56,154 bases of DNA, from the IMG/VR virus record IMGVR_UViG_3300045988_060580; one strand, 5' to 3'. Each line of letters starts with the position of its first letter. Position 1 is the first letter of the stretch. Below the pieces are notes generated by a model that saw only the letters and a list, made by a program, of their open reading frames with translations, ran no database searches and was not told the DNA's origin. Shown one piece after another: positions 5,227 through 54,744 of the stretch. The DNA is from a virus. A program made the position numbers and the translations under genes.

Positions 5227-5239
5227 CTTAACCAAGTTA

Positions 5240-5524
5240 TTAATTGTTAAATTCATAAAATAGACCGCTTTTATTATAACAAGTTGTAAGCTTTTTTAAG
5301 CCATAAAAAATATCATAGTTACAATCAAAAACAGCTTGTGGACCCGTGTATATAATTACGCTTCGCCCATTATCCCAAAAAGAAAAATCTGTTATTTTTT
5401 CAAGCTCCAAGATTTCGGCCGCCTTTTTCCCATAGATAAATATAAATTTTTCTAAATTTCCGCGGATTTCTCCGGCTGTTAAAGTGTCTAATTTTTCATA
5501 TATTGTCATATCGTAGACCTCCAT
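5240..5524 (-). CDS. Hypothetical protein (94 aa)
   Basis: ORF with an upstream RBS-like ttaggggataatatt on the minus strand. Confidence 0.55.
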   Translation of the reverse strand: MEVYDMTIYEKLDTLTAGEIRGNLEKFIFIYGKKAAEILELEKITDFSFWDNGRSVIIYTGPQAVFDCNYDIFYGLKKLTTCYNKSGLFYEFNN

Positions 5525-10041: not shown

Positions 10042-10113
10042 TGCACCATAGCCAAGCGGTAAGGCACAGAGCTTTGATCTCTGTATGCGTCGGTTCGAAT
10101 CCGACTGGTGTAG
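10042..10113 (+). tRNA. tRNA-Gln(UUG): tRNA-Gln (anticodon UUG)
   Basis: Manual cloverleaf: acceptor tgcacca/tggtgta with U1-A72, anticodon arm cagag-cTTTGat-ctctg, T-arm gtcgg-ttcgaat-ccgac. Confidence 0.8.
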
Positions 10114-10326: not shown

Positions 10327-10409
10327 GCCGATATGGGATAAAGGTATTCCAATAGCTTGCTAAGCTATCCAACAGAAATGTTGTTCGTGTTCGATTCACG
10401 ATGTCGGCG
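10327..10409 (+). tRNA. tRNA-Ser(GCU): tRNA-Ser (anticodon GCU), class II
   Basis: Acceptor gccgata/tgtcggc, anticodon arm atagc-ttGCTaa-gctat, variable arm caaca-gaaa-tgttg, T-arm tcgtg-ttcgatt-cacga. Confidence 0.8.
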
Positions 10410-10485
10410 CTTTGAAAGCACTTCTTAGGTCTGCGTGCGTAATGCTGTTTGCGGGCTTATCCTAGGTTAAGAGGTGTGAGTAAGT

Positions 10486-10603: not shown

Positions 10604-10675
10604 CGGATAGTAGTTCAGTTGGGAGTAACGCTTGATTTATTCAAGTAGTCACAGGTTCAAGTCCTGTCTATCCGA
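10604..10675 (+). tRNA. tRNA-Lys-like gene with abnormal anticodon loop (7-nt register gives anticodon UUA; alternative 5-nt loop UUUAU)
   Basis: Acceptor cggatag/ctatccg, D-arm tagttcagttgggag, T-arm acagg-ttcaagt-cctgt, anticodon region cttga-tttat-tcaag. Confidence 0.55.
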
Positions 10676-10798
10676 TTACAACAAACTAGCTTGACGAAGC
10701 GAAAAGCACTTCCGCTGTGCCTGTTTGTTGTTTTTATTGATCAAGCGGAGTGTGTATCACAGGCATACATAAATAATATCAAGCGGAGGTATTCGATT

Positions 10799-11755
10799 AT
10801 GGCAACAATTAGAGTGCATAAAACAAAAAATTACACAGTTATGAGTAATACTCATTTAAGGGATAAGAATTTAAGTTTGAAAGCAAAAGGATTATTGTCC
10901 GTAATGCTTTCATTGCCCGATAATTGGGATTATTCAATAGCTGGGTTAGTTGCAATAAGTAAAGAGAATGAAACAGCTGTTAAATCGGCTTTAAATGAGT
11001 TAAGGGATAATAATTATGTTGTGGTTACTAAAGAAAACCCAACAAAAAGCAATGGTGGAAGAATAAAGTACACCTATGAGGTTTACGAAGAACCATATAA
11101 ACAGAAAATAGAAAAACAAGATACAGAAAATCTAGGGGTTGAACACCAACAGGTAGAAAACCACGGACAATTAAATACTAATGAATTAAGTACTGATGAA
11201 TTAAATATTAATATACAAAATACTAATGAATTAAATACTAAAAGTAATTCTCTTAACAGAGAACAATGCAATTCTTTTTTACCCAAAGATAAAAAAGTGA
11301 AAGAGTTTAAGCCGATAAGCGATTATTCTCAAAGTGATTGGGAAGTTGCCGAAGAAAGAATGATAAGTAGAGCTGGTAAGATAGCTTATGATTGGACTAA
11401 TGATAAAACACTCAAAGAAAATGTAGAAGCATTCTTTAAATACTTTTTAAATAAACACGGAGAATGTACAGGAGAATATCACTACCCATTAACAGATAAG
11501 GTTTTATCAAGAGTAGTAGATAATTTAACAAAAGAAACCGACATAGAGCGTGACGGATATACAGATACCTATTATGCGGCTATAAGTGATATGGACGATA
11601 ATACAGACTACAAGATGTTGGTTGATGAATATTTCAATACAAAGTTTTCAGCACAATGTGATTACAGCTTAGTTCACTTTTCTTCTGAAAAGGTTTTAAT
11701 TAACATTATGAATCACGCTTGTAAGAGCAGTTGGTGTGAAAGTAAGGAATTGTAG
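10799..11755 (+). CDS. Winged-helix replication-initiator/DnaD-like protein with a low-complexity centre
   Basis: RBS ggaggt. The N-terminus (KNYTVMSNTHLRDKNLSLKAKGLLSVMLSLPDNWDYS) is typical of phage/plasmid wHTH initiators. Confidence 0.5.
   Translation: MATIRVHKTKNYTVMSNTHLRDKNLSLKAKGLLSVMLSLPDNWDYSIAGLVAISKENETAVKSALNELRDNNYVVVTKENPTKSNGGRIKYTYEVYEEPYKQKIEKQDTENLGVEHQQVENHGQLNTNELSTDELNINIQNTNELNTKSNSLNREQCNSFLPKDKKVKEFKPISDYSQSDWEVAEERMISRAGKIAYDWTNDKTLKENVEAFFKYFLNKHGECTGEYHYPLTDKVLSRVVDNLTKETDIERDGYTDTYYAAISDMDDNTDYKMLVDEYFNTKFSAQCDYSLVHFSSEKVLINIMNHACKSSWCESKEL
11175..11234 (+). repeat. Three 15-bp iteron-like repeats (RTACTRATGAATTAA) inside the initiator-like gene
   Basis: Copies at 11175, 11190 and 11220. 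Confidence 0.5.
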
Positions 11756-11767
11756 GAGGTATTCATT

Positions 11768-12262
11768 ATGAGTTCATACAAAGATTTACAGACCAAGATT
11801 TTTAAAAGAGATAATTATACTTGCAGATATTGCGGAAAGAGTAACAGAGAATACAGGGCGTTGGTAATGTCACATATAAGAACAGCTTCAATGTGCGGCG
11901 ATGATAGAGAGAGCAATTTAATTACATTGTGCAGACATTGTTACAATCACATTTCTAACAATGAGATTAGGGCAAAGTTTGAAACAAAAGAAAATGCTGA
12001 TTATTTTTGGGGATTATACCACGAAAAAGTCAAAGGATATTGTTATTATACAAACTACATCAAAAAGGTATTTACTGAAAATGGTGTGCTTATGACAAGA
12101 CCGCAGATTGATAAATATGTCAGTATATTTGTTAAAAATGATGATGATTTTAACGCTTTCAAAGCAGAACTTCAAAATACAGGTTATAAGAATATGCCAT
12201 CTAAAATGCGTAGTGATGTAAGAAAATATAATCATCAAGTTGAAAATCAAAGTAAGGAGTGA
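11768..12262 (+). CDS. HNH endonuclease (packaging-associated type)
   Basis: Motifs CRYCG...SHI....NLITLCRHCYNH. Confidence 0.7.
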   Translation: MSSYKDLQTKIFKRDNYTCRYCGKSNREYRALVMSHIRTASMCGDDRESNLITLCRHCYNHISNNEIRAKFETKENADYFWGLYHEKVKGYCYYTNYIKKVFTENGVLMTRPQIDKYVSIFVKNDDDFNAFKAELQNTGYKNMPSKMRSDVRKYNHQVENQSKE

Positions 12263-16037: not shown

Positions 16038-17630
16038 ATGCAGACAGGAAGAATTGCTATTTATACAGGCGCAAAAGAAATAACACCTGACAATATAATA
16101 CCAATTTTGCGTGAAGCAATTTTGGAACATGATATTAATTCCAACAGAATACAGTTTCTTCTTGATTATGACGCAGGAATACAGCCAATAGTTAGGAAGA
16201 ACCCAAAGACTTACAGACCAGACATTGATTGTGAATGCTGTGATAATGTGGCTAACGAGGTCACAGAGTTTAATTTAGGATTTAAGTGGGGAAATCCTAT
16301 AACGCTAGTTCAAAACGGCGACAATGAGGATTCTAACCTCACAGAAGCTATAGCAGAATTAAACAGTTGCTACGAATCACAGAATGCAAGGCAGAAGCAA
16401 CAGGAACTTGCAAGATATGTTGAAATCGGCGGTGTTGGATATGTCCTTATTGATGTGAATACAGAATATGAGGATGGGGAAAGCTATTTCACATATGATG
16501 TATTAGATCCAAGAACAACATTTGTTGTAAGGTCAACAGCTTATAGCGATAAGAGGGTTATTCTTGCAGGTACTTATATCAAAGACAAACATAGCGGTAC
16601 AAGATATTACACCTGTTTTACAAAAGATATTCGCTATGAAATTACCGACGGAATAAAAATCACTAACGGACCAGAAAAAGGAAAAACAAAATGGGGATTT
16701 TTAGAGAGAAGTGGGGAAGAGAACCCATTACATAAAATCCCTATTATTGAATATACAAGGTCATTTGATAGAATGGGATGTTTTGAACGGCAAATATCTG
16801 AAATGGATAACTTAAACCTACTCATTTCAGATTTTACGAATGATGTCGAACAGAATACACAGGCAGTATGGCATACAAATGATGTTGATTTCCCGGTTGA
16901 ACAGGAAACAACAGTTGATAAAGATGGAACGCAACGCATTACTGAAAAAGTAAGAAAGCCAAAATCTGGAGAATGGATGCAGACCTACACATCAGCAGAT
17001 GGCAAAACTCCAATAGTTGAGCCACTTGCAATCAATTACGATTACACAGGTATGCTTAATAATATCCAATCAAGGCGACAGATAATCTTGCAGAAATGCA
17101 ATGTGCCACAACGAAATGATAATAGCGGTGGAAGTACAGGAGTTGCAATGTCGGACGCAACAGGCTGGTCACAAGCAGAAACAGCGGCGGCAAAGCAACA
17201 ACTGATTACAGATGGCTGCAAAATGGAAGAGATAAAAGTTGTTCTTGCGGCTATTAAGCTGTCAAACAATGTTAATAGCAGTAATCCATTACTTAAATTA
17301 AGGGCAAGAGATGTAAAGCCTAACATTAAGCGACAAAAAACTTATGAAATGTCAACTAAGGTTAACGCTATGGCGACATTGATAAGCCACGGATTTAGTC
17401 TTAAAGATACAGTTGATGCAATTCCATTTTTTGATGACCCTAACGATGTTGTAGCAAGAAGCGGAGAAATGGTTAAGGCATATCAAGACAGCATAATTAA
17501 CAAAGACACACAGAACCAAGCAGAGGGCGGAGATGGCGAACAATCGCCTAACAAAGACCGCACAATGCAAGACTTATCAGACCAGACAGAAAATAGTCCA
17601 GTTATAGATAAGAGCAGAACTGATAAATAA
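16038..17630 (+). CDS. Portal protein
   Basis: 530 aa, immediately downstream of terL, with an acidic C-terminus. Confidence 0.8.
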   Translation: MQTGRIAIYTGAKEITPDNIIPILREAILEHDINSNRIQFLLDYDAGIQPIVRKNPKTYRPDIDCECCDNVANEVTEFNLGFKWGNPITLVQNGDNEDSNLTEAIAELNSCYESQNARQKQQELARYVEIGGVGYVLIDVNTEYEDGESYFTYDVLDPRTTFVVRSTAYSDKRVILAGTYIKDKHSGTRYYTCFTKDIRYEITDGIKITNGPEKGKTKWGFLERSGEENPLHKIPIIEYTRSFDRMGCFERQISEMDNLNLLISDFTNDVEQNTQAVWHTNDVDFPVEQETTVDKDGTQRITEKVRKPKSGEWMQTYTSADGKTPIVEPLAINYDYTGMLNNIQSRRQIILQKCNVPQRNDNSGGSTGVAMSDATGWSQAETAAAKQQLITDGCKMEEIKVVLAAIKLSNNVNSSNPLLKLRARDVKPNIKRQKTYEMSTKVNAMATLISHGFSLKDTVDAIPFFDDPNDVVARSGEMVKAYQDSIINKDTQNQAEGGDGEQSPNKDRTMQDLSDQTENSPVIDKSRTDK

Positions 17631-17756
17631 ATTGATATTGAGCCACAGGGTAGAAATACCTTGTGGCTTTTTATATGCCCTAGAGAAAGGGCAATACAAA
17701 TATCGCAAGAAGTTGAGAGAACAACAAAAAACGCAGAAAGCAGAGGTAAAGAAATT

Positions 17757-18335
17757 ATGGCAGATGTAACTAACACAACAACAGAACCAACAACTAATAA
17801 TGAGCCACAGAACGAAGAACAGACACCTAGCGTAGAAGAACTTATGGCACAGCTTGCTAGTGAAAGAGCTGAAAAAGAGAAGTATAAGAACGCTTCCGAT
17901 AAAGCCAGTTCAGAAGCAGCTAAGTACAAGAAAGAACTTCGTTCAAAGCAGACAGCAGAAGAACAGGAAGCGGAAGCAAAGGCGGAAGCTGAAAAGTTGC
18001 AGGCTGAAAAGTTCGAGAACATGAGCAAAGAGCTTAATCATATGAAAGCTGTCAATGCTTATCAGAAAGTTATAGGCGATGGAAAGGATATTGATTCTTT
18101 GATTGAGGCAGTTGCAGATGCAGACCATAGCCTTATAGCAACTGTAATTGCCAATGAAGTGCAAAGACAGGTTAAAGAAGCTAAGGCAGAGTGGCTTAAA
18201 TCAAGACCGGCTATTAATGCAGGCGGTGGAGAAGAAAGCACGATAACACAGGAACAGTTCAACAAGATGAATTACCATGAAAGAGTGGAGTTCAAAAATA
18301 AGAATCCAGAACTTTATAAGAAGTTCACAGAGTAG
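17757..18335 (+). CDS. Scaffolding protein
   Basis: Coiled-coil, E/K/A-rich, located between the portal and capsid genes. ATG 17757 has RBS agaggt. Confidence 0.7.
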   Translation: MADVTNTTTEPTTNNEPQNEEQTPSVEELMAQLASERAEKEKYKNASDKASSEAAKYKKELRSKQTAEEQEAEAKAEAEKLQAEKFENMSKELNHMKAVNAYQKVIGDGKDIDSLIEAVADADHSLIATVIANEVQRQVKEAKAEWLKSRPAINAGGGEESTITQEQFNKMNYHERVEFKNKNPELYKKFTE

Positions 18336-24011: not shown

Positions 24012-25283
24012 GTGGAATTAGACAGTTTAGAAGTCAAGATTACCGGTACTGCCACTAAAGCTATCAATTCTGTTGATAAACTGATAAATCAGCTTACAAG
24101 GCTGTCAACATCACTTGCAACTGTGAATGGTTCATCACTAAGCGGTCTTGCGAGTGGTGTTAGTCAGTTAGGTTCTGCTATGCAGAATATGAACGCAGGA
24201 ACAGCAGATTTTACAAGACTTGCTAAGAACATCACAAAGATAGGTTCTGTTGATTCAGTTGCACTAACTAACACAGCTACATCACTTCAAGCTGTCACAA
24301 AGGCAGTTGCAAGCATATCAGCTATTCCGCAAAATGCAACACAAGTCACAGAATTTGCAAAGTCACTTGGTAAGCTAGGCAGTAAGAGTATAGAAAACGC
24401 CGTTGTAAACATTCCAAAATTGGGCAATGCTTTAAATGGCTTAATGACAACGCTATCAAGAGCGCCAACAGTAAGTCAAAATGTTATTCAAATGACTAAC
24501 GCATTGGCTAATCTTGCTAGTCAAGGTAGCAAGGTGGGTACTTCTTCGAACTCACTTCAAAAGTCGCTGTATGGCGTTTCTACAAGTGCTAGGACAGCAA
24601 CTAGAAGTAGTTGGAACTTAGCAAGTGCAATAGGTAAGTTTTATGCCACTTATTTTATGGTAATTCGTGGCAGTAAGAAACTTATAGAAGCCATCAAGTC
24701 AACGACAGATTACATTGAAGCGTTCAACTATCAAGCGGTAGCATTTGGCAAGATCGGTTCAGAATGGGATAAGGATTATGAAAAGTACGGATATGATAAC
24801 GCTACGGCATACGCAGAAAGTTTTCAGAACAGAGTAAATGATACTCTTGGAAAACTATCTGGCTTAAAAGTTAATGTTCAAGGTGGCTTACTTGAAGAAA
24901 GTGGAGCAAAGAACTTAGGACTTAACATACAAGAGATAACACAGTACGCTTCACAATTAGCTTCTGTCACTAACTCACTAGGGCAGACAGGTGAAGCGAC
25001 AACAGCAATAACAAAGTCAATGACAATGCTTGCAGGCGATATAAGCTCACTTTTTAATGTGGACTATAAAACGGTTGCACAGAACTTACAAAGCGGCTTA
25101 ATCGGTCAATCAAGGGCATTGTATAAGTATGGTATTGATATTACTAATGCTACATTAGCGACATACGCTTATAACTTAGGCATTTCCAAGTCGGTGTCTG
25201 AAATGACACAGATGGAAAAACAACAGTTAAGAGTGTTGGCAATATTAGACCAAAGTAAAGTATCTTGGGGTGATTTAGCTAAT
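24012..25283 (+). CDS. Tape measure protein, exon 1 (GTG start)
   Basis: Ala/Ser/Thr-rich helical N-terminal part ending ...SWGDLAN. Confidence 0.75.
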
Positions 25284-25623
25284 AGACGGAAGAAAGTTAA
25301 TAATATAGCTTATCTTCCAAGTGTTGCATAAGAATAGAAATATCTTATGGCAATCGGGCAAAATCGGTGAAGGCTAAAGTTTTCAACTATGCTAATACCG
25401 AGATAACTCAATAGATTACGAACAGGCTATTGAGTATCGTAACGAGTAGGAATTGAATAAATATAATATTCCCAAGAGTGTCCGACACTACTGTATATAG
25501 GACAGTATGAGGCGGAAGTGGCTACCACCAAACCAAACATAATGATGTGGGTGATAATGTACTCTGAACTTATAGGAAACTATAAGAAGTATAGGATAAA
25601 GAGCCTATACGATAACAAATTTG
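25284..25623 (+). ncRNA. ORF-less 340-nt structured insert in the tape-measure gene (candidate group I intron)
   Basis: Removing it restores the frame and a conserved motif. The 5' exon ends in U and the insert ends in G. Hairpins at 25407..25434, 25477..25489, 25490..25506, 25569..25586 (GAAA loop) and 25589..25610. Confidence 0.55.
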
Positions 25624-27678
25624 ACAATCAACTCCCCAAGTAATATGTTACGCCAGTTCGGTAACAATATGAAAGAGGTAGGAATGGTAGCAGGACAGCT
25701 ATTTATCCCAATTCTTTCAAAGGTTATGCCAGTTGTAAACGGCGTTACTATTGCTATAAAAAGATTATTAGTCAATCTTGCTTCTTTAATGGGCGTTAAG
25801 ATTGATTTTGAGAGCTTTGGACAAAGTGGATATAAAGACACATCAGACGGCTTAGAAGATATTTCAAGCGGCTACCAAGATGTAGCTGATTCAGCTAAGA
25901 AAGCTACATTATCCCTTATGGGATTTGATGAAATAAATAAATTACAGGACGATACAAGCTCAAGCAAGGGTTCAAGCGGTGGTGGCGGTAGCACTATTGA
26001 TTTGACAGATGATATCGCTAAGGCGGCGGCTGATTATGAAGCGGCATGGAATAAAGCATTTGCCAATATGGAAAATTCAGCGGTTGCTTGGGCTGATAAG
26101 ATAGAGAAAGCACTTGAACCTGTTAGGAAGATATTTAAAGATTTTGCAATCGGGGATTTCTATGCAGCAGGACAAGATACATCTAACCTTGTGGCAGGAA
26201 TTTTTAATTGGTTTGCAAAGGCTATAGATGATGTTCCTTGGTATACAATTGGACATAATATAGGAGAGTATTTAGCCGGACTTAATTGGCTTGAAATATT
26301 TTCAAGCCTTGGCAATGTGTTATGGCAAGCCATTAAAGCAGCTATCGAATTATGGAGTGGTTCATTTACGGCAGCACCAATCGAAACAACCTTAATAACG
26401 GCTATAGCAGCATTAAAATTTACAGGCTTAGGAAGTGTTTTGAAAAAGAAACTTGTTACAGTAATAGGGACAAGTATTAAAGGTGCTTTAAAATCATTCG
26501 GAACAGGTAGTATAATATCAGGAATAGGTGGATTACTTACAACAGATATAGGCACTATTATAGGAGCAGGAACAGCAACAGAAATAGGCTTAACTATAGG
26601 TGCTGGAATAGTAGGTGGAATAGTAGCTGCTATTGCTGGATTTAATTTAGGCAATTGGCTCAATGAAAAATTAACAGGTGAGAAAATAGATATGTCAATG
26701 TTCGACCAATTAGCATATCTTATAAAAGCACCATTTGAAGATTTACCTAGCTTTATTGACGGAGTGATAGAAACTATCACATTCGGGCATAAAGATGATA
26801 TAGCAAATTGGTGGACTGCAAGTGTTGCACCTTGGTTTACTAAGGAAAAATGGGGAGAACTGGGAGACAACATAAAAACATCTTTAAGCGAAAAATGGAA
26901 CAGTTTTTCAGATTGGTGGGGCAATACAGCTATTGTTAGCTGGTGGAATAATAATGTTGCACCGTGGTTTGAAAAAGAAACATGGGTTGACGCTGTTGAT
27001 GGAATGAAATTAGGAATACAAGAAAAATGGGATTCAATCGTTGGTTGGTGGAACAGTCTTGCAATTGTTTCTTGGTGGAGCAATGATGTGAGACCGTGGT
27101 TTACTAAGGAAAAATGGGAAAACTTAGCTGACGGAATTAAAAAAGGTATTCAAGGGAAGTGGGATGATGTTGTAGATTGGTGGGATAGCAAACCAGCACT
27201 TCAACGCATTTCTGTAGCTATCGAAGATTTTAAAACTAAGATACAGAACGCTTGGAACAGCTTTAAGCAGTGGTGGAATGATTTAGGACTTGAATTTCCA
27301 CACATTGATACACCACACTTTAAGATTGACGGAGAATTTAGTCTTGCACCGCCTAAAGTACCAAAAGTCAGTATTGATTGGTATGCAAACGGCGGATTCC
27401 CAGGCAAAGGACAATTGTTTGTCGCAAACGAAGTTGGACCCGAAATGGTTGGTACTATGGACGGAAGAACAGCAGTAGCCAATCAGCAGGAAATCACAAC
27501 AGGTATTGCCAACGCAGTTTATCCAGCGGTTTACAATGCAGTTGTAGCGGCTATGTCAGAAGCTAACAACAATGTAAACATAACATTACAAGGTGACGCA
27601 GATAAGCTGTTTACAATGGTACAAGATAAAGCTAATAACTATACTAATATGACAGGGCAAGCAGCCTTTCCGTATTGA
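25624..27678 (+). CDS. Tape measure protein, exon 2
   Basis: Begins TINSPSNMLRQFGNN. Contains Gly-rich TM segments and W-rich repeats (WW.N.V.PWF.KEKW). Confidence 0.75.
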   Translation, partial: TINSPSNMLRQFGNNMKEVGMVAGQLFIPILSKVMPVVNGVTIAIKRLLVNLASLMGVKIDFESFGQSGYKDTSDGLEDISSGYQDVADSAKKATLSLMGFDEINKLQDDTSSSKGSSGGGGSTIDLTDDIAKAAADYEAAWNKAFANMENSAVAWADKIEKALEPVRKIFKDFAIGDFYAAGQDTSNLVAGIFNWFAKAIDDVPWYTIGHNIGEYLAGLNWLEIFSSLGNVLWQAIKAAIELWSGSFTAAPIETTLITAIAALKFTGLGSVLKKKLVTVIGTSIKGALKSFGTGSIISGIGGLLTTDIGTIIGAGTATEIGLTIGAGIVGGIVAAIAGFNLGNWLNEKLTGEKIDMSMFDQLAYLIKAPFEDLPSFIDGVIETITFGHKDDIANWWTASVAPWFTKEKWGELGDNIKTSLSEKWNSFSDWWGNTAIVSWWNNNVAPWFEKETWVDAVDGMKLGIQEKWDSIVGWWNSLAIVSWWSNDVRPWFTKEKWENLADGIKKGIQGKWDDVVDWWDSKPALQRISVAIEDFKTKIQNAWNSFKQWWNDLGLEFPHIDTPHFKIDGEFSLAPPKVPKVSIDWYANGGFPGKGQLFVANEVGPEMVGTMDGRTAVANQQEITTGIANAVYPAVYNAVVAAMSEANNNVNITLQGDADKLFTMVQDKANNYTNMTGQAAFPY

Positions 27679-52977: not shown

Positions 52978-53633
52978 CAAGAGAAGAAACAGTTAAAATC
53001 ATTCGCATTATGTGTGATTGCTACCCTAACTACAAGCCTAACAACCTATCAGAGACAGTAGATGTGTGGAATATGATGTTGGAAAATTACGGTTATGAAC
53101 AAGTGTCAGTCGCACTTAAAGCATACATCAACTCTGATATAAGCGGATTTGCCCCAAGTATAGGACAGCTGATAGGTAAGATACAGACTATATCACAGCC
53201 ACAGGAACTTGACGGAATGACAGCTTGGGGGTTGGTTAGTAAGGCGTTACGGAATGGTACTTATGGGGCGGTTGAAGAATTTAATAAGCTACCGCCACTT
53301 GTCAGGCAGGCGGTTGGTATGCCAGATAACCTTAAAAACTGGGCGACATCAGATTATCAGACGATTGAAACAGTAATACAATCAAATTTTCTAAGAACTT
53401 ACGAAACAGTTGTTAAGCGTGCGAACGAAATAAATCGTATGCCAGACAATATCAAATCACTTATCGAAAAAACGAATGCAAATTCGCATAAGGCTCAAAT
53501 CGAGCAAAAACTCCAAAGAGATATAAATACATTACAAATTAAAGAAAATGCCCTTATCGGTCAAAATACAAACGCAGAAGAGTATATCGAAGCACCTCAA
53601 GATATTCAAGAAAGAATAAACGCCATGAGGTAG
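52974..53633 (+). CDS. G39P-like replicative helicase loader/inhibitor family protein
   Basis: The pattern VDVWNMMLENYGYEQVSVALKAYI....FAPSIGQLI resembles this family. Confidence 0.45.
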   Translation: MTREETVKIIRIMCDCYPNYKPNNLSETVDVWNMMLENYGYEQVSVALKAYINSDISGFAPSIGQLIGKIQTISQPQELDGMTAWGLVSKALRNGTYGAVEEFNKLPPLVRQAVGMPDNLKNWATSDYQTIETVIQSNFLRTYETVVKRANEINRMPDNIKSLIEKTNANSHKAQIEQKLQRDINTLQIKENALIGQNTNAEEYIEAPQDIQERINAMR

Positions 53634-54119: not shown

Positions 54120-54333
54120 GCAGAAGAACAAAGAAAATAAAGAAATGTTCGGTAATGCCTTAACAATTCTGCTATGGGTGCTGCATGATAAATTCGGATT
54201 TGGAAATAAGCGACTAGAACGGCTTATTGATGAGATTGATAAATTCAACGAAGATTTCAACGCAGGACTTATAGATCCGAAAGAACTTATTGAACAGCTA
54301 GAAGAAGAAACAAAAATAAAAATTAAATATTAA
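54061..54333 (+). CDS. Hypothetical protein
   Basis: RBS gagagg. Overlaps the upstream ORF by 59 nt. Confidence 0.45.
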   Translation: MSKSEQRRFQEQMMRVQLNRQKNKENKEMFGNALTILLWVLHDKFGFGNKRLERLIDEIDKFNEDFNAGLIDPKELIEQLEEETKIKIKY

Positions 54334-54345
54334 GGAGTATGGCTT

Positions 54346-54744
54346 ATGAAGTTTTCAGAACTTACTAAGCCGGAACTTGAAAAGATATTGGAAAATGCCA
54401 ATTTTACCGAGGAAGAATTAAGAATTTTCAAGTTGCTTGTGGGTAATATGAGCTTAGAGCAAATTAGCCAGAGGCTCATGTTATCCAAAGCAACAATTTC
54501 AAGGAGAGTTAAGGATATAAAAATCAAGATAGAAAGGACTGATGAAATGGTTAAAACAATCCCTATATGGGAAAAAGTAACACTGACAGTTGAAGAAGCG
54601 TCTGAATATAGCAATATTGGAATTAATAGAATTAGTACAATGCTTAATGAGATTAGTTGCCCCTTTGTTTTAAAGGTCGGAAATAAAAGGCTTGTCAAGC
54701 GTAAAGAGTTTGAGAAATATATAGAAAAAAGTAGGGAAATATAG
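54346..54744 (+). CDS. Dual HTH protein: sigma-70 r4/LuxR-like N-terminus and excisionase (MerR-type)-like C-terminus
   Basis: Segments LSKATISRRVKDIK and LTVEEASEYSNIGINRI....KRLVKRKEFEKYI. Adjacent to the integrase. Confidence 0.55.
   Translation: MKFSELTKPELEKILENANFTEEELRIFKLLVGNMSLEQISQRLMLSKATISRRVKDIKIKIERTDEMVKTIPIWEKVTLTVEEASEYSNIGINRISTMLNEISCPFVLKVGNKRLVKRKEFEKYIEKSREI

Follow-up and report, generated by a model that had tools for sequence, protein, structure and literature searches.

The tape-measure protein (TMP) gene of this virus appears as two long open reading frames (ORFs) in different frames, and the locus raises the question of whether these are separate genes or one gene interrupted by an intron. 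The window analysed here is the whole 56,154-nt stretch of IMG/VR record IMGVR_UViG_3300045988_060580 (~37% G+C). It looks like a temperate siphovirus-type genome: almost all genes lie on the + strand, and they include those for large terminase, portal, major head protein, TMP, a 1026-aa tail protein, endolysin, anti-repressor, RecT and integrase. The tape-measure gene is flanked by head/tail genes on one side and by the gene for the 1026-aa tail protein on the other. The nearest prophage-like relatives come from the human-gut Clostridia CAG:882 and CAG:510, and a megablast search of the TMP region against phage genomes returned no close phage, only short intron-derived matches.

The two halves of the tape-measure gene

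ORF 24012..25331 (+) stops at TAA 25329-25331, and ORF 25621..27678 (+) lies in another frame (offset 1609 = 3n+1), as a sequence-only reading of the window had described; the ORF list and translations also bear out its claim that removal of a 340-nt insert (25284-25623, 3n+1) restores the frame. No ORF longer than 41 aa was listed within the insert, in line with the same reading. The second ORF opens with TTG at 25621, and no ribosome-binding site was seen before it by eye. Excision joins GCT AAT to ACA ATC and yields ...SKVSWGDLAN↓TINSPSNMLRQF... (arrow, junction; the peptide reads ...GDLAN↓TINSPSNM...), so that the ligated exons encode ...VSWGDLANTINSPSNMLR... across the junction and the spliced coding sequence has 1108 codons. 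Moving the junction by +1 gives an identical mRNA; the boundary T25283/G25623 was chosen because it is the sole option with U at -1 and a terminal G, as group I chemistry requires, and both residues, already pointed out in the sequence-only reading, are seen at these positions. The resulting gene parts are as follows.

24012..25283 (+): 5′ exon, N-terminal 424 codons of the TMP, ending ...GAT TTA GCT AAT (ORF translation; PHROG 1535 positions 2-345)
25284..25623 (+): probable group I intron, 340 nt, no ORF (RF00028; junction of intron-less homologues; shared by at least 21 other contigs)
25329..25331 (+): UAA stop of the exon-1 frame in unspliced RNA, intron codon 16, ahead of the predicted catalytic core (ORF list)
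25624..27678 (+): 3′ exon, C-terminal 684 codons, starting ACA ATC AAC TCC (translation; PHROG 1535 positions 360-537, PHROG 167)

Homologues were used to examine the junction at protein and DNA level. PHROG 1535 (tape measure) covers both halves collinearly (positions 2-345 in the first ORF, 360-537 in the second), PHROG 167 also matches the 3′ half, and a 234-aa junction-spanning fragment aligned unbroken by tblastn to intact, annotated TMP genes of many phages. Uninterrupted homologues with 54-95% identity read WGDLANTINSPSNM gap-free across the junction, and metagenomic proteins 66-95% identical to the fragment read SKVSWGDLANTINSPSNM(I/L)RQF, also gap-free. Homologues in which the two ORFs are normally separate genes, named by the sequence-only reading as evidence against an intron, were not what was found: homologous TMPs are single proteins across the junction. 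At DNA level, the comparison with intron-less relatives that the reading had called for placed the insertion point exactly at aat↓ac (L001, L002, prophage-like loci of Firmicutes bacterium CAG:882 and Clostridium sp. CAG:510, and others). Residues G, D, T, N and R of the GD(F/L)A.T..S..N..R block are invariant in a 16-sequence alignment (A1) that includes a homologue at 39% identity, so the insert sits in the most conserved block of the TMP. Profile match and tail-gene synteny together mark the spliced protein as a tail tape measure. Its former label, 'TP901-type', found no support: the spliced protein had no match in Pfam (E<=0.01) and no relevant and no tape-measure match in NCBIfam (E<=1), and a TP901-family core (TIGR01760 / PF10145) found no family-model match in either collection.

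The closest intron-less allele, L001 (Logan contig ERR14021227_21660, flanks 93% identical), was used for the local junction only, because the contig looks mosaic. It joins window pieces 17363-18259, 25030-25860 (without the intron), 53254-53617 and 54281-54437 to Mur-ligase, TPR and STAS genes; either the assembly is chimeric or the element is rearranged. Aligned with window 25624-25641, its positions 5227-5243 carry seven differences from the intron-bearing alleles in the 18 nt 3′ of the site, with one further difference at -4 of the 5′ exon. All changes are synonymous (ACG ATT AAC AGT CCA TCA versus ACA ATC AAC TCC CCA AGT), and the silent cluster possibly stems from co-conversion or from divergence of an endonuclease target site.

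Class and fold of the insert

A search of the 601-nt region 25150-25750, following the check proposed by the sequence-only reading, matched Rfam RF00028 (Intron_gpI) over 25306-25586 and the entire model (1-253 of 253) with E 1.8e-10; the score of 45.8 bits falls short of the gathering score, 50. The deficit is small and comes chiefly from P8, where the alignment is poor, and from the first hairpin. Rfam searches of the whole window, at the gathering threshold and by E-value, did not report the intron, and default Rfam scans miss it because its score lies under the gathering score. An Rfam E-value scan of contigs L001-L004 likewise gave no match, which in L003 and L004 is probably due to interruption of the match by an endonuclease insertion. 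The insert folds better than every shuffle (MFE z-score -4.26 on the + strand, -2.99 on the - strand), and blastn returned partial matches to it in 154 phage records (Streptococcus, Staphylococcus, Bacillus, Clostridium and others). The same intron occupies the same site in at least 21 other contigs with 93-98.5% identity, and 22 alleles were compared.

The anatomy below combines the Rfam alignment with MFE folds and a comparison of relatives; intron numbering is the window coordinate minus 25283.

25280..25284 (+): predicted P1 5′ strand, exon UAAU plus intron A1 (RNAfold, window and L003 alleles)
25288..25318 (+): P1 extension hairpin, GGAAGAAAGUUA / UAGCUU-UCUUCC, intron 5-35 (MFE, RNAfold, allele comparison)
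25322..25326 (+): putative internal guide UGUUG, P1 3′ strand, intron 39-43 (RNAfold; invariant in 22 alleles)
25327..25349 (+): P2 hairpin, GAAA tetraloop 25337-25340, intron 44-66 (MFE, RNAfold)
25354..25360 (+): P3 5′ strand UCGGGCA, pairing with 25479-25485, intron 71-77 (Rfam; all seven pairs covary in alignment A4)
Within 25364..25401 (+): P4, 25364-25369 / 25396-25401, intron 81-86 / 113-118, with A-rich J4/5 and J5/4 (Rfam, covariation)
25372-25374 / 25391-25393 (+): P5, with P5a 25378-25381 / 25385-25388, intron 89-110 (Rfam, covariation)
25402..25438 (+): P6/P6a hairpin, 12 bp, intron 119-155 (MFE, covariation)
25444..25448 (+): P7 5′ strand GAGUA, intron 161-165 (aligned to RF00028 consensus GACUA; class-specific covariation)
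25449..25472 (+): P7.1 hairpin GGAAU / AUUCC with conserved UGAA...AUAUAAU interior, intron 166-189 (covariation)
25479..25485 (+): P3 3′ strand UGUCCGA, intron 196-202 (Rfam, covariation)
25487..25552 (+): P8 domain, intron 204-269, putative closing stem 25487-25489 / 25550-25552
25490-25506, 25518-25528, 25537-25548 (+): three P8 hairpins (allele comparison)
25553..25564 (+): J8/7 GAUAAUG (intron 270-276) and P7 3′ strand UACUC 25560-25564 (277-281) (Rfam, covariation)
25567..25568 (+): P9.0 5′ strand AA, pairing with UU 25621-25622, intron 284-285 / 338-339 (read by eye)
25569..25586 (+): P9 hairpin, 7 bp, GAAA tetraloop, intron 286-303 (Rfam, MFE)
25589..25610 (+): P9.1 hairpin, conserved loop AUAAAGAG, intron 306-327 (MFE)
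25623..25623 (+): terminal guanosine (omega-G, G340), 3′ splice site (sequence, alleles, intron-less DNA junction)

The P3-to-P3′ region was aligned for seven sequences (four alleles and three distant homologues from other genes), and a hand-built structure comprising P3, P4, P5, P6 and P7.1 was scored on them: 97.6% of cells were paired against ~38% in slid controls, with a compensatory change in 15/36 pairs. A covariance model built from this alignment (R1) gave 67 matches in 100 sources. In the 58 distinct matches (alignment A4), 91.1% of cells were paired against 34-40% in slid controls and 35/36 pairs had changed on both sides; these sequences were fitted to R1 and the pairing counts are thereby inflated, but the gap to the slid controls is still large. 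No second intron of this lineage was found by R1 elsewhere in the window. As R1 cannot represent P7, this helix was tested apart from it by searching for the exact reverse complement of each 5′-strand class within 120 nt downstream. GACUA, GAGUA, GCAUA, GCGUA and GAAUA are each found with their own exact complement, and the class complement is present in 45/56 sequences (permuted mean 16.4, maximum 27), which settles, at the level of sequence comparison, P7 as GAGUA 25444-25448 with UACUC 25560-25564. This pseudoknot would be the guanosine-binding helix of the insert. The insert thus contains the P3-P8 and P4-P6 domains in canonical order.

Among the 22 alleles compensatory pairs occur in the P1 extension, P2, P5a, P6a, P7.1, two P8 hairpins and P9.1. 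The P1 extension keeps its stem in L003 though the loop differs, and G6-C34 becomes A-U in one allele; A53-U58 of P2 becomes G-C in three alleles and C126-G149 of P6a becomes U-A in four. In P8 the changes are U211-A219 to C-G and A256-U263 to G-C, and the three-hairpin layout recurs in the related introns of L053 and L086. P9.0 is AA/UU in the window versus AG/CU in L053 and L031 (by eye), and the P9 stem covaries in the phages 6ec and JCL1032 and in L030 and L074. The 16-mer TAGGATAAAGAGCCTA, which comprises P9.1 stem and loop, was found in at least 120 viral contigs (L007-L126), and the invariance of the loop suggests a conserved tertiary contact. The internal loop of P5 (UAA / AU), read by eye, may resemble the 11-nt tetraloop receptor. 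Two elements of the Rfam alignment were set aside: its first hairpin (CUUAU/AUAAG), in favour of the P1 extension and P2, and its long-range P8 pairing, which conflicts with the two covarying hairpins.

Five of the helices proposed in the sequence-only reading are kept in this fold (25288..25318; 25407..25434, now P6a; 25490..25506; 25569..25586, now P9; 25589..25610, now P9.1), and most of them show compensatory changes in relatives. The sixth, a local hairpin at 25477..25489, is not native: its bases form the P3 3′ strand. The long-range agagt/actct pairing was also discarded, since the covarying partner of UACUC 25560-25564 is GAGUA 25444-25448 and the 5′ segment of the proposed pairing is invariant across the family while P7′ varies.

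The group I intron that had been proposed at T25283↓A25284...G25623↓A25624 is in good agreement with the full-length RF00028 match, the covariation of core and P7, the intron-less junctions and the existence of sister alleles with a GIY-YIG gene; every sequence-level group I feature that was tested was found, apart from the Rfam gathering score. We conclude with high confidence that the TMP gene is interrupted at 25284-25623 by a group I intron, of the subgroup-IA kind that is common among Gram-positive bacterial phages. It is called IA-like on account of the insertion between P7 and P3′; P7.1 is present and covarying; the window has no P7.2, a hairpin that does occur in relatives L030, L053 and L086. 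IA2 membership is not established, because P7.2 is missing and P8 is elaborated.

The 5′ splice site and the predicted splicing pathway

RNAfold of the exon with the 5′ part of the intron gave the same pairing of UAAU↓A with UGUUG for the window and L003 alleles, in which the 5′ splice site is marked by a U.G wobble of U25283 with G25323; next in the predicted fold come a small internal loop, the extension hairpin and P2. The guide UGUUG is invariant in 22/22 alleles, and the sole exon change inside P1 (-4 U to C, in L059) keeps or improves the pairing. The sequence-only reading had suggested GUUA at about 25304 as guide. That motif actually lies at 25296-25299 inside the conserved hairpin 25288-25318, and it is replaced or deleted in L003-type alleles though their exons are identical; UGUUG 25322-25326 is more likely to be the guide. 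P1 is a weak helix (two G.U pairs among its 5 bp) and P10 has only 2 bp (GU 25321-25322 can pair with AC, the first two bases of the 3′ exon), and P1 with its guide is the least secure part of the intron model.

Splicing is expected to follow the standard two-step, guanosine-initiated mechanism. The pre-mRNA would fold into the P3-P9 core, as predicted from the family, and the last four exon bases UAAU with A25284 would pair with UGUUG, presenting the U25283.G25323 wobble. Free guanosine bound in P7 would cleave after U25283; G25623, placed by the 2-bp P9.0, would then take over the guanosine's binding site, and exon ligation would produce a single 1108-codon tape-measure mRNA. Ribosomes on unspliced RNA would halt at UAA 25329-25331, ahead of the core.

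On this analysis the insert is very probably a group I intron that would self-splice. A genuine group I intron that needs a host- or phage-encoded protein cofactor and splices inefficiently by itself is unlikely, even if P1 is short and G.U-rich, P10 minimal and the P7.2 hairpin of relatives missing: the GAAA tetraloops in L2 and L9 and the receptor-like P5 loop, as read from the sequence, point to a self-stabilising RNA, and related phage IA introns self-splice in vitro. A decayed, splicing-dead remnant in a phage making two separate tape-measure polypeptides, or in a defective prophage, is highly improbable. It would fit the missing endonuclease gene, the weak P1 and P10, the Rfam score below gathering and the TTG at 25621 that opens the second ORF, but the core helices are all intact, no ribosome-binding site was seen by eye before 25621, homologous TMPs are not divided at the junction, and most differences among the 22 alleles are compensatory or fall in loops, which argues for selection on the RNA fold. 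That there is no intron at all, and that the insert is an intergenic spacer between two normal genes or a site of translational bypassing or frameshifting, would account for two ORFs in different frames and has next to no probability, being already refuted by intron-less homologues continuous across the exact junction and at odds with the group I core, with the lack of any excess of promoter-like or terminator-like signals in the insert region and with 340 nt containing stops in all frames, far beyond known bypass.

For the self-splicing intron, deliberately inefficient splicing, by which the intron would control when TMP is made or in what ratio two tail-assembly products appear, seems very unlikely. 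If splicing were inefficient, a 439-residue N-terminal TMP fragment (424 exon-encoded and 15 intron-encoded residues) would result.

Alleles, relatives and neighbouring elements

The site shows three states among relatives: no intron, intron alone, and intron with a ~935-nt insertion. Of the 21 further contigs, 13 carry the intron without an ORF, and eight, including L003 (a sequenced relative 94-98% identical to window 20.8-30.9 kb), have the insertion after about position 25386, in the terminal loop of P5. In L003, and in L004, an additional contig of the same type outside the 21, the insertion encodes a 311-aa GIY-YIG/NUMOD1 protein (called ORF). As judged from sequence comparison, the three states are a classical homing-intron polymorphism; near-identical alleles with a GIY-YIG gene beside other, intron-less relatives indicate that the element is, or recently was, a homing intron. 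The window copy has no intron ORF and hence no homing-endonuclease gene, so it cannot home by itself and is presumably a passively inherited passenger. It is conceivable, though very unlikely, that intron-plus-GIY-YIG alleles serve in competition between phages at the TMP locus, in which case the silent changes beside the site in intron-less alleles would represent resistance to cleavage. Gene calling splits the 3′ TMP exon of L003 (6001-8033) into ORFs of 373 and 304 aa with a 4-nt overlap, where the window has one 685-aa ORF; the split is a frameshift or a sequencing error.

TMP group I introns are already published, and the window intron adds a member to a well-documented element type. In Bacillus cereus-group prophages, group I introns of classes IA1 and IA2, with or without GIY-YIG or HNH genes, occupy three TMP sites, TMP-IVS1, TMP-IVS2 and TMP-IVS3 (Tourasse & Kolsto 2008, PMC2504315). 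Compared by description, these share with the window intron the TMP host gene, temperate Firmicutes phages, IA-type ribozymes, insertion in a conserved block, alleles with and without an endonuclease gene, and early intron stops. The window intron differs from them in TMP family, in site (GDLAN↓TINSP) and in host clade, the closest prophage-like relatives of the window being the gut Clostridia CAG:882 and CAG:510.

Two phage records resemble the window intron more directly. The TMP of Lactobacillus phage JCL1032 is annotated as a two-part join (NC_019456; R1 match 43.2 bits), and its intron shares J8/7, P7′, P9 with its GAAA loop, the P9.1 loop AUAAAGAG and the GAUAACA...UUUG tail with the window intron; P7 covaries (GACUA/UAGUC in JCL1032, GAGUA/UACUC in the window). 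The JCL1032 intron differs in its site, which lies in an unrelated part of the TMP, in a simple P8 and in a longer P7.1. In Staphylococcus phage 6ec (NC_024355), a record without intron annotation, the annotated TMP consists of two CDSs with an HNH endonuclease ORF between them; the 3′ 110 nt are 78% identical to the window intron and R1 matched with 41.9 bits, whereas the HNH gene and the insertion site set 6ec apart from the window. The introns of T4 td and Staphylococcus phage Twort (IA2) resemble the window intron in overall topology, a peripheral insertion separating P7 from P3′, and td presumably has the same J6/7-P7 segment UAACGA(C/G)UA and A-rich J8/7 as the window intron. Unlike these IA2 ribozymes, the window intron has P7.1 only and a P8 made of a three-hairpin domain.

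Knowledge of group I introns is unchanged by the window intron. Its consequence is one of annotation, in that the TMP of the window and of at least 21 related metagenomic contigs, now read as two hypothetical ORFs, would be one spliced 1108-codon coding sequence, of an intron lineage that standard Rfam annotation at the gathering threshold overlooks. The three-state allele series offers a convenient case for studying how homing introns cycle between gain and loss in gut phages.

Further introns were seen in other contigs. Among the R1 matches, two or three intron cores per locus are present in L016, L057, L064, L074 and L092. L053 and L086 carry related introns in other genes. The L053 exons, read by eye, are ...HSRAGAQV↓PFSSINLGT, and by eye the host gene resembles an anaerobic ribonucleotide reductase; the P5 loop of L086 contains an ORF whose motif, ...GFFDGDG..., is by eye LAGLIDADG-type.

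Elsewhere in the window, a free-standing HNH endonuclease ORF (11768-12262, +; PHROG 144 and others) precedes the terminase region and falls outside every detected intron. ARAGORN reported a tRNA with anticodon UUA (tRNA-Stop, ochre suppressor) at 10604-10675 (+; Rfam tRNA 51.6 bits), next to tRNA-Gln(UUG) at 10042-10113 and tRNA-Ser(GCU) at 10327-10410. An int-alpA RNA (Rfam RF02996; 51.6 bits, gathering score 35.8) at 10679-10746 (+) starts 3 nt 3′ of the suppressor-like tRNA; a replication-initiator/DnaD-like ORF (10691-11755) has its listed start within this match. TAA ends 30/55 long + strand ORFs and is the commonest stop despite the UUA-anticodon tRNA, so the genome is not globally recoded. 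The portal ORF (16038-17630, +) ends in TAA and is followed in the same frame by ORF 17661-18335 (+; 224 aa, without a PHROG match), such that readthrough of the portal TAA would add 234 codons; this arrangement may reflect readthrough by the UAA-reading tRNA or just as well be coincidence.
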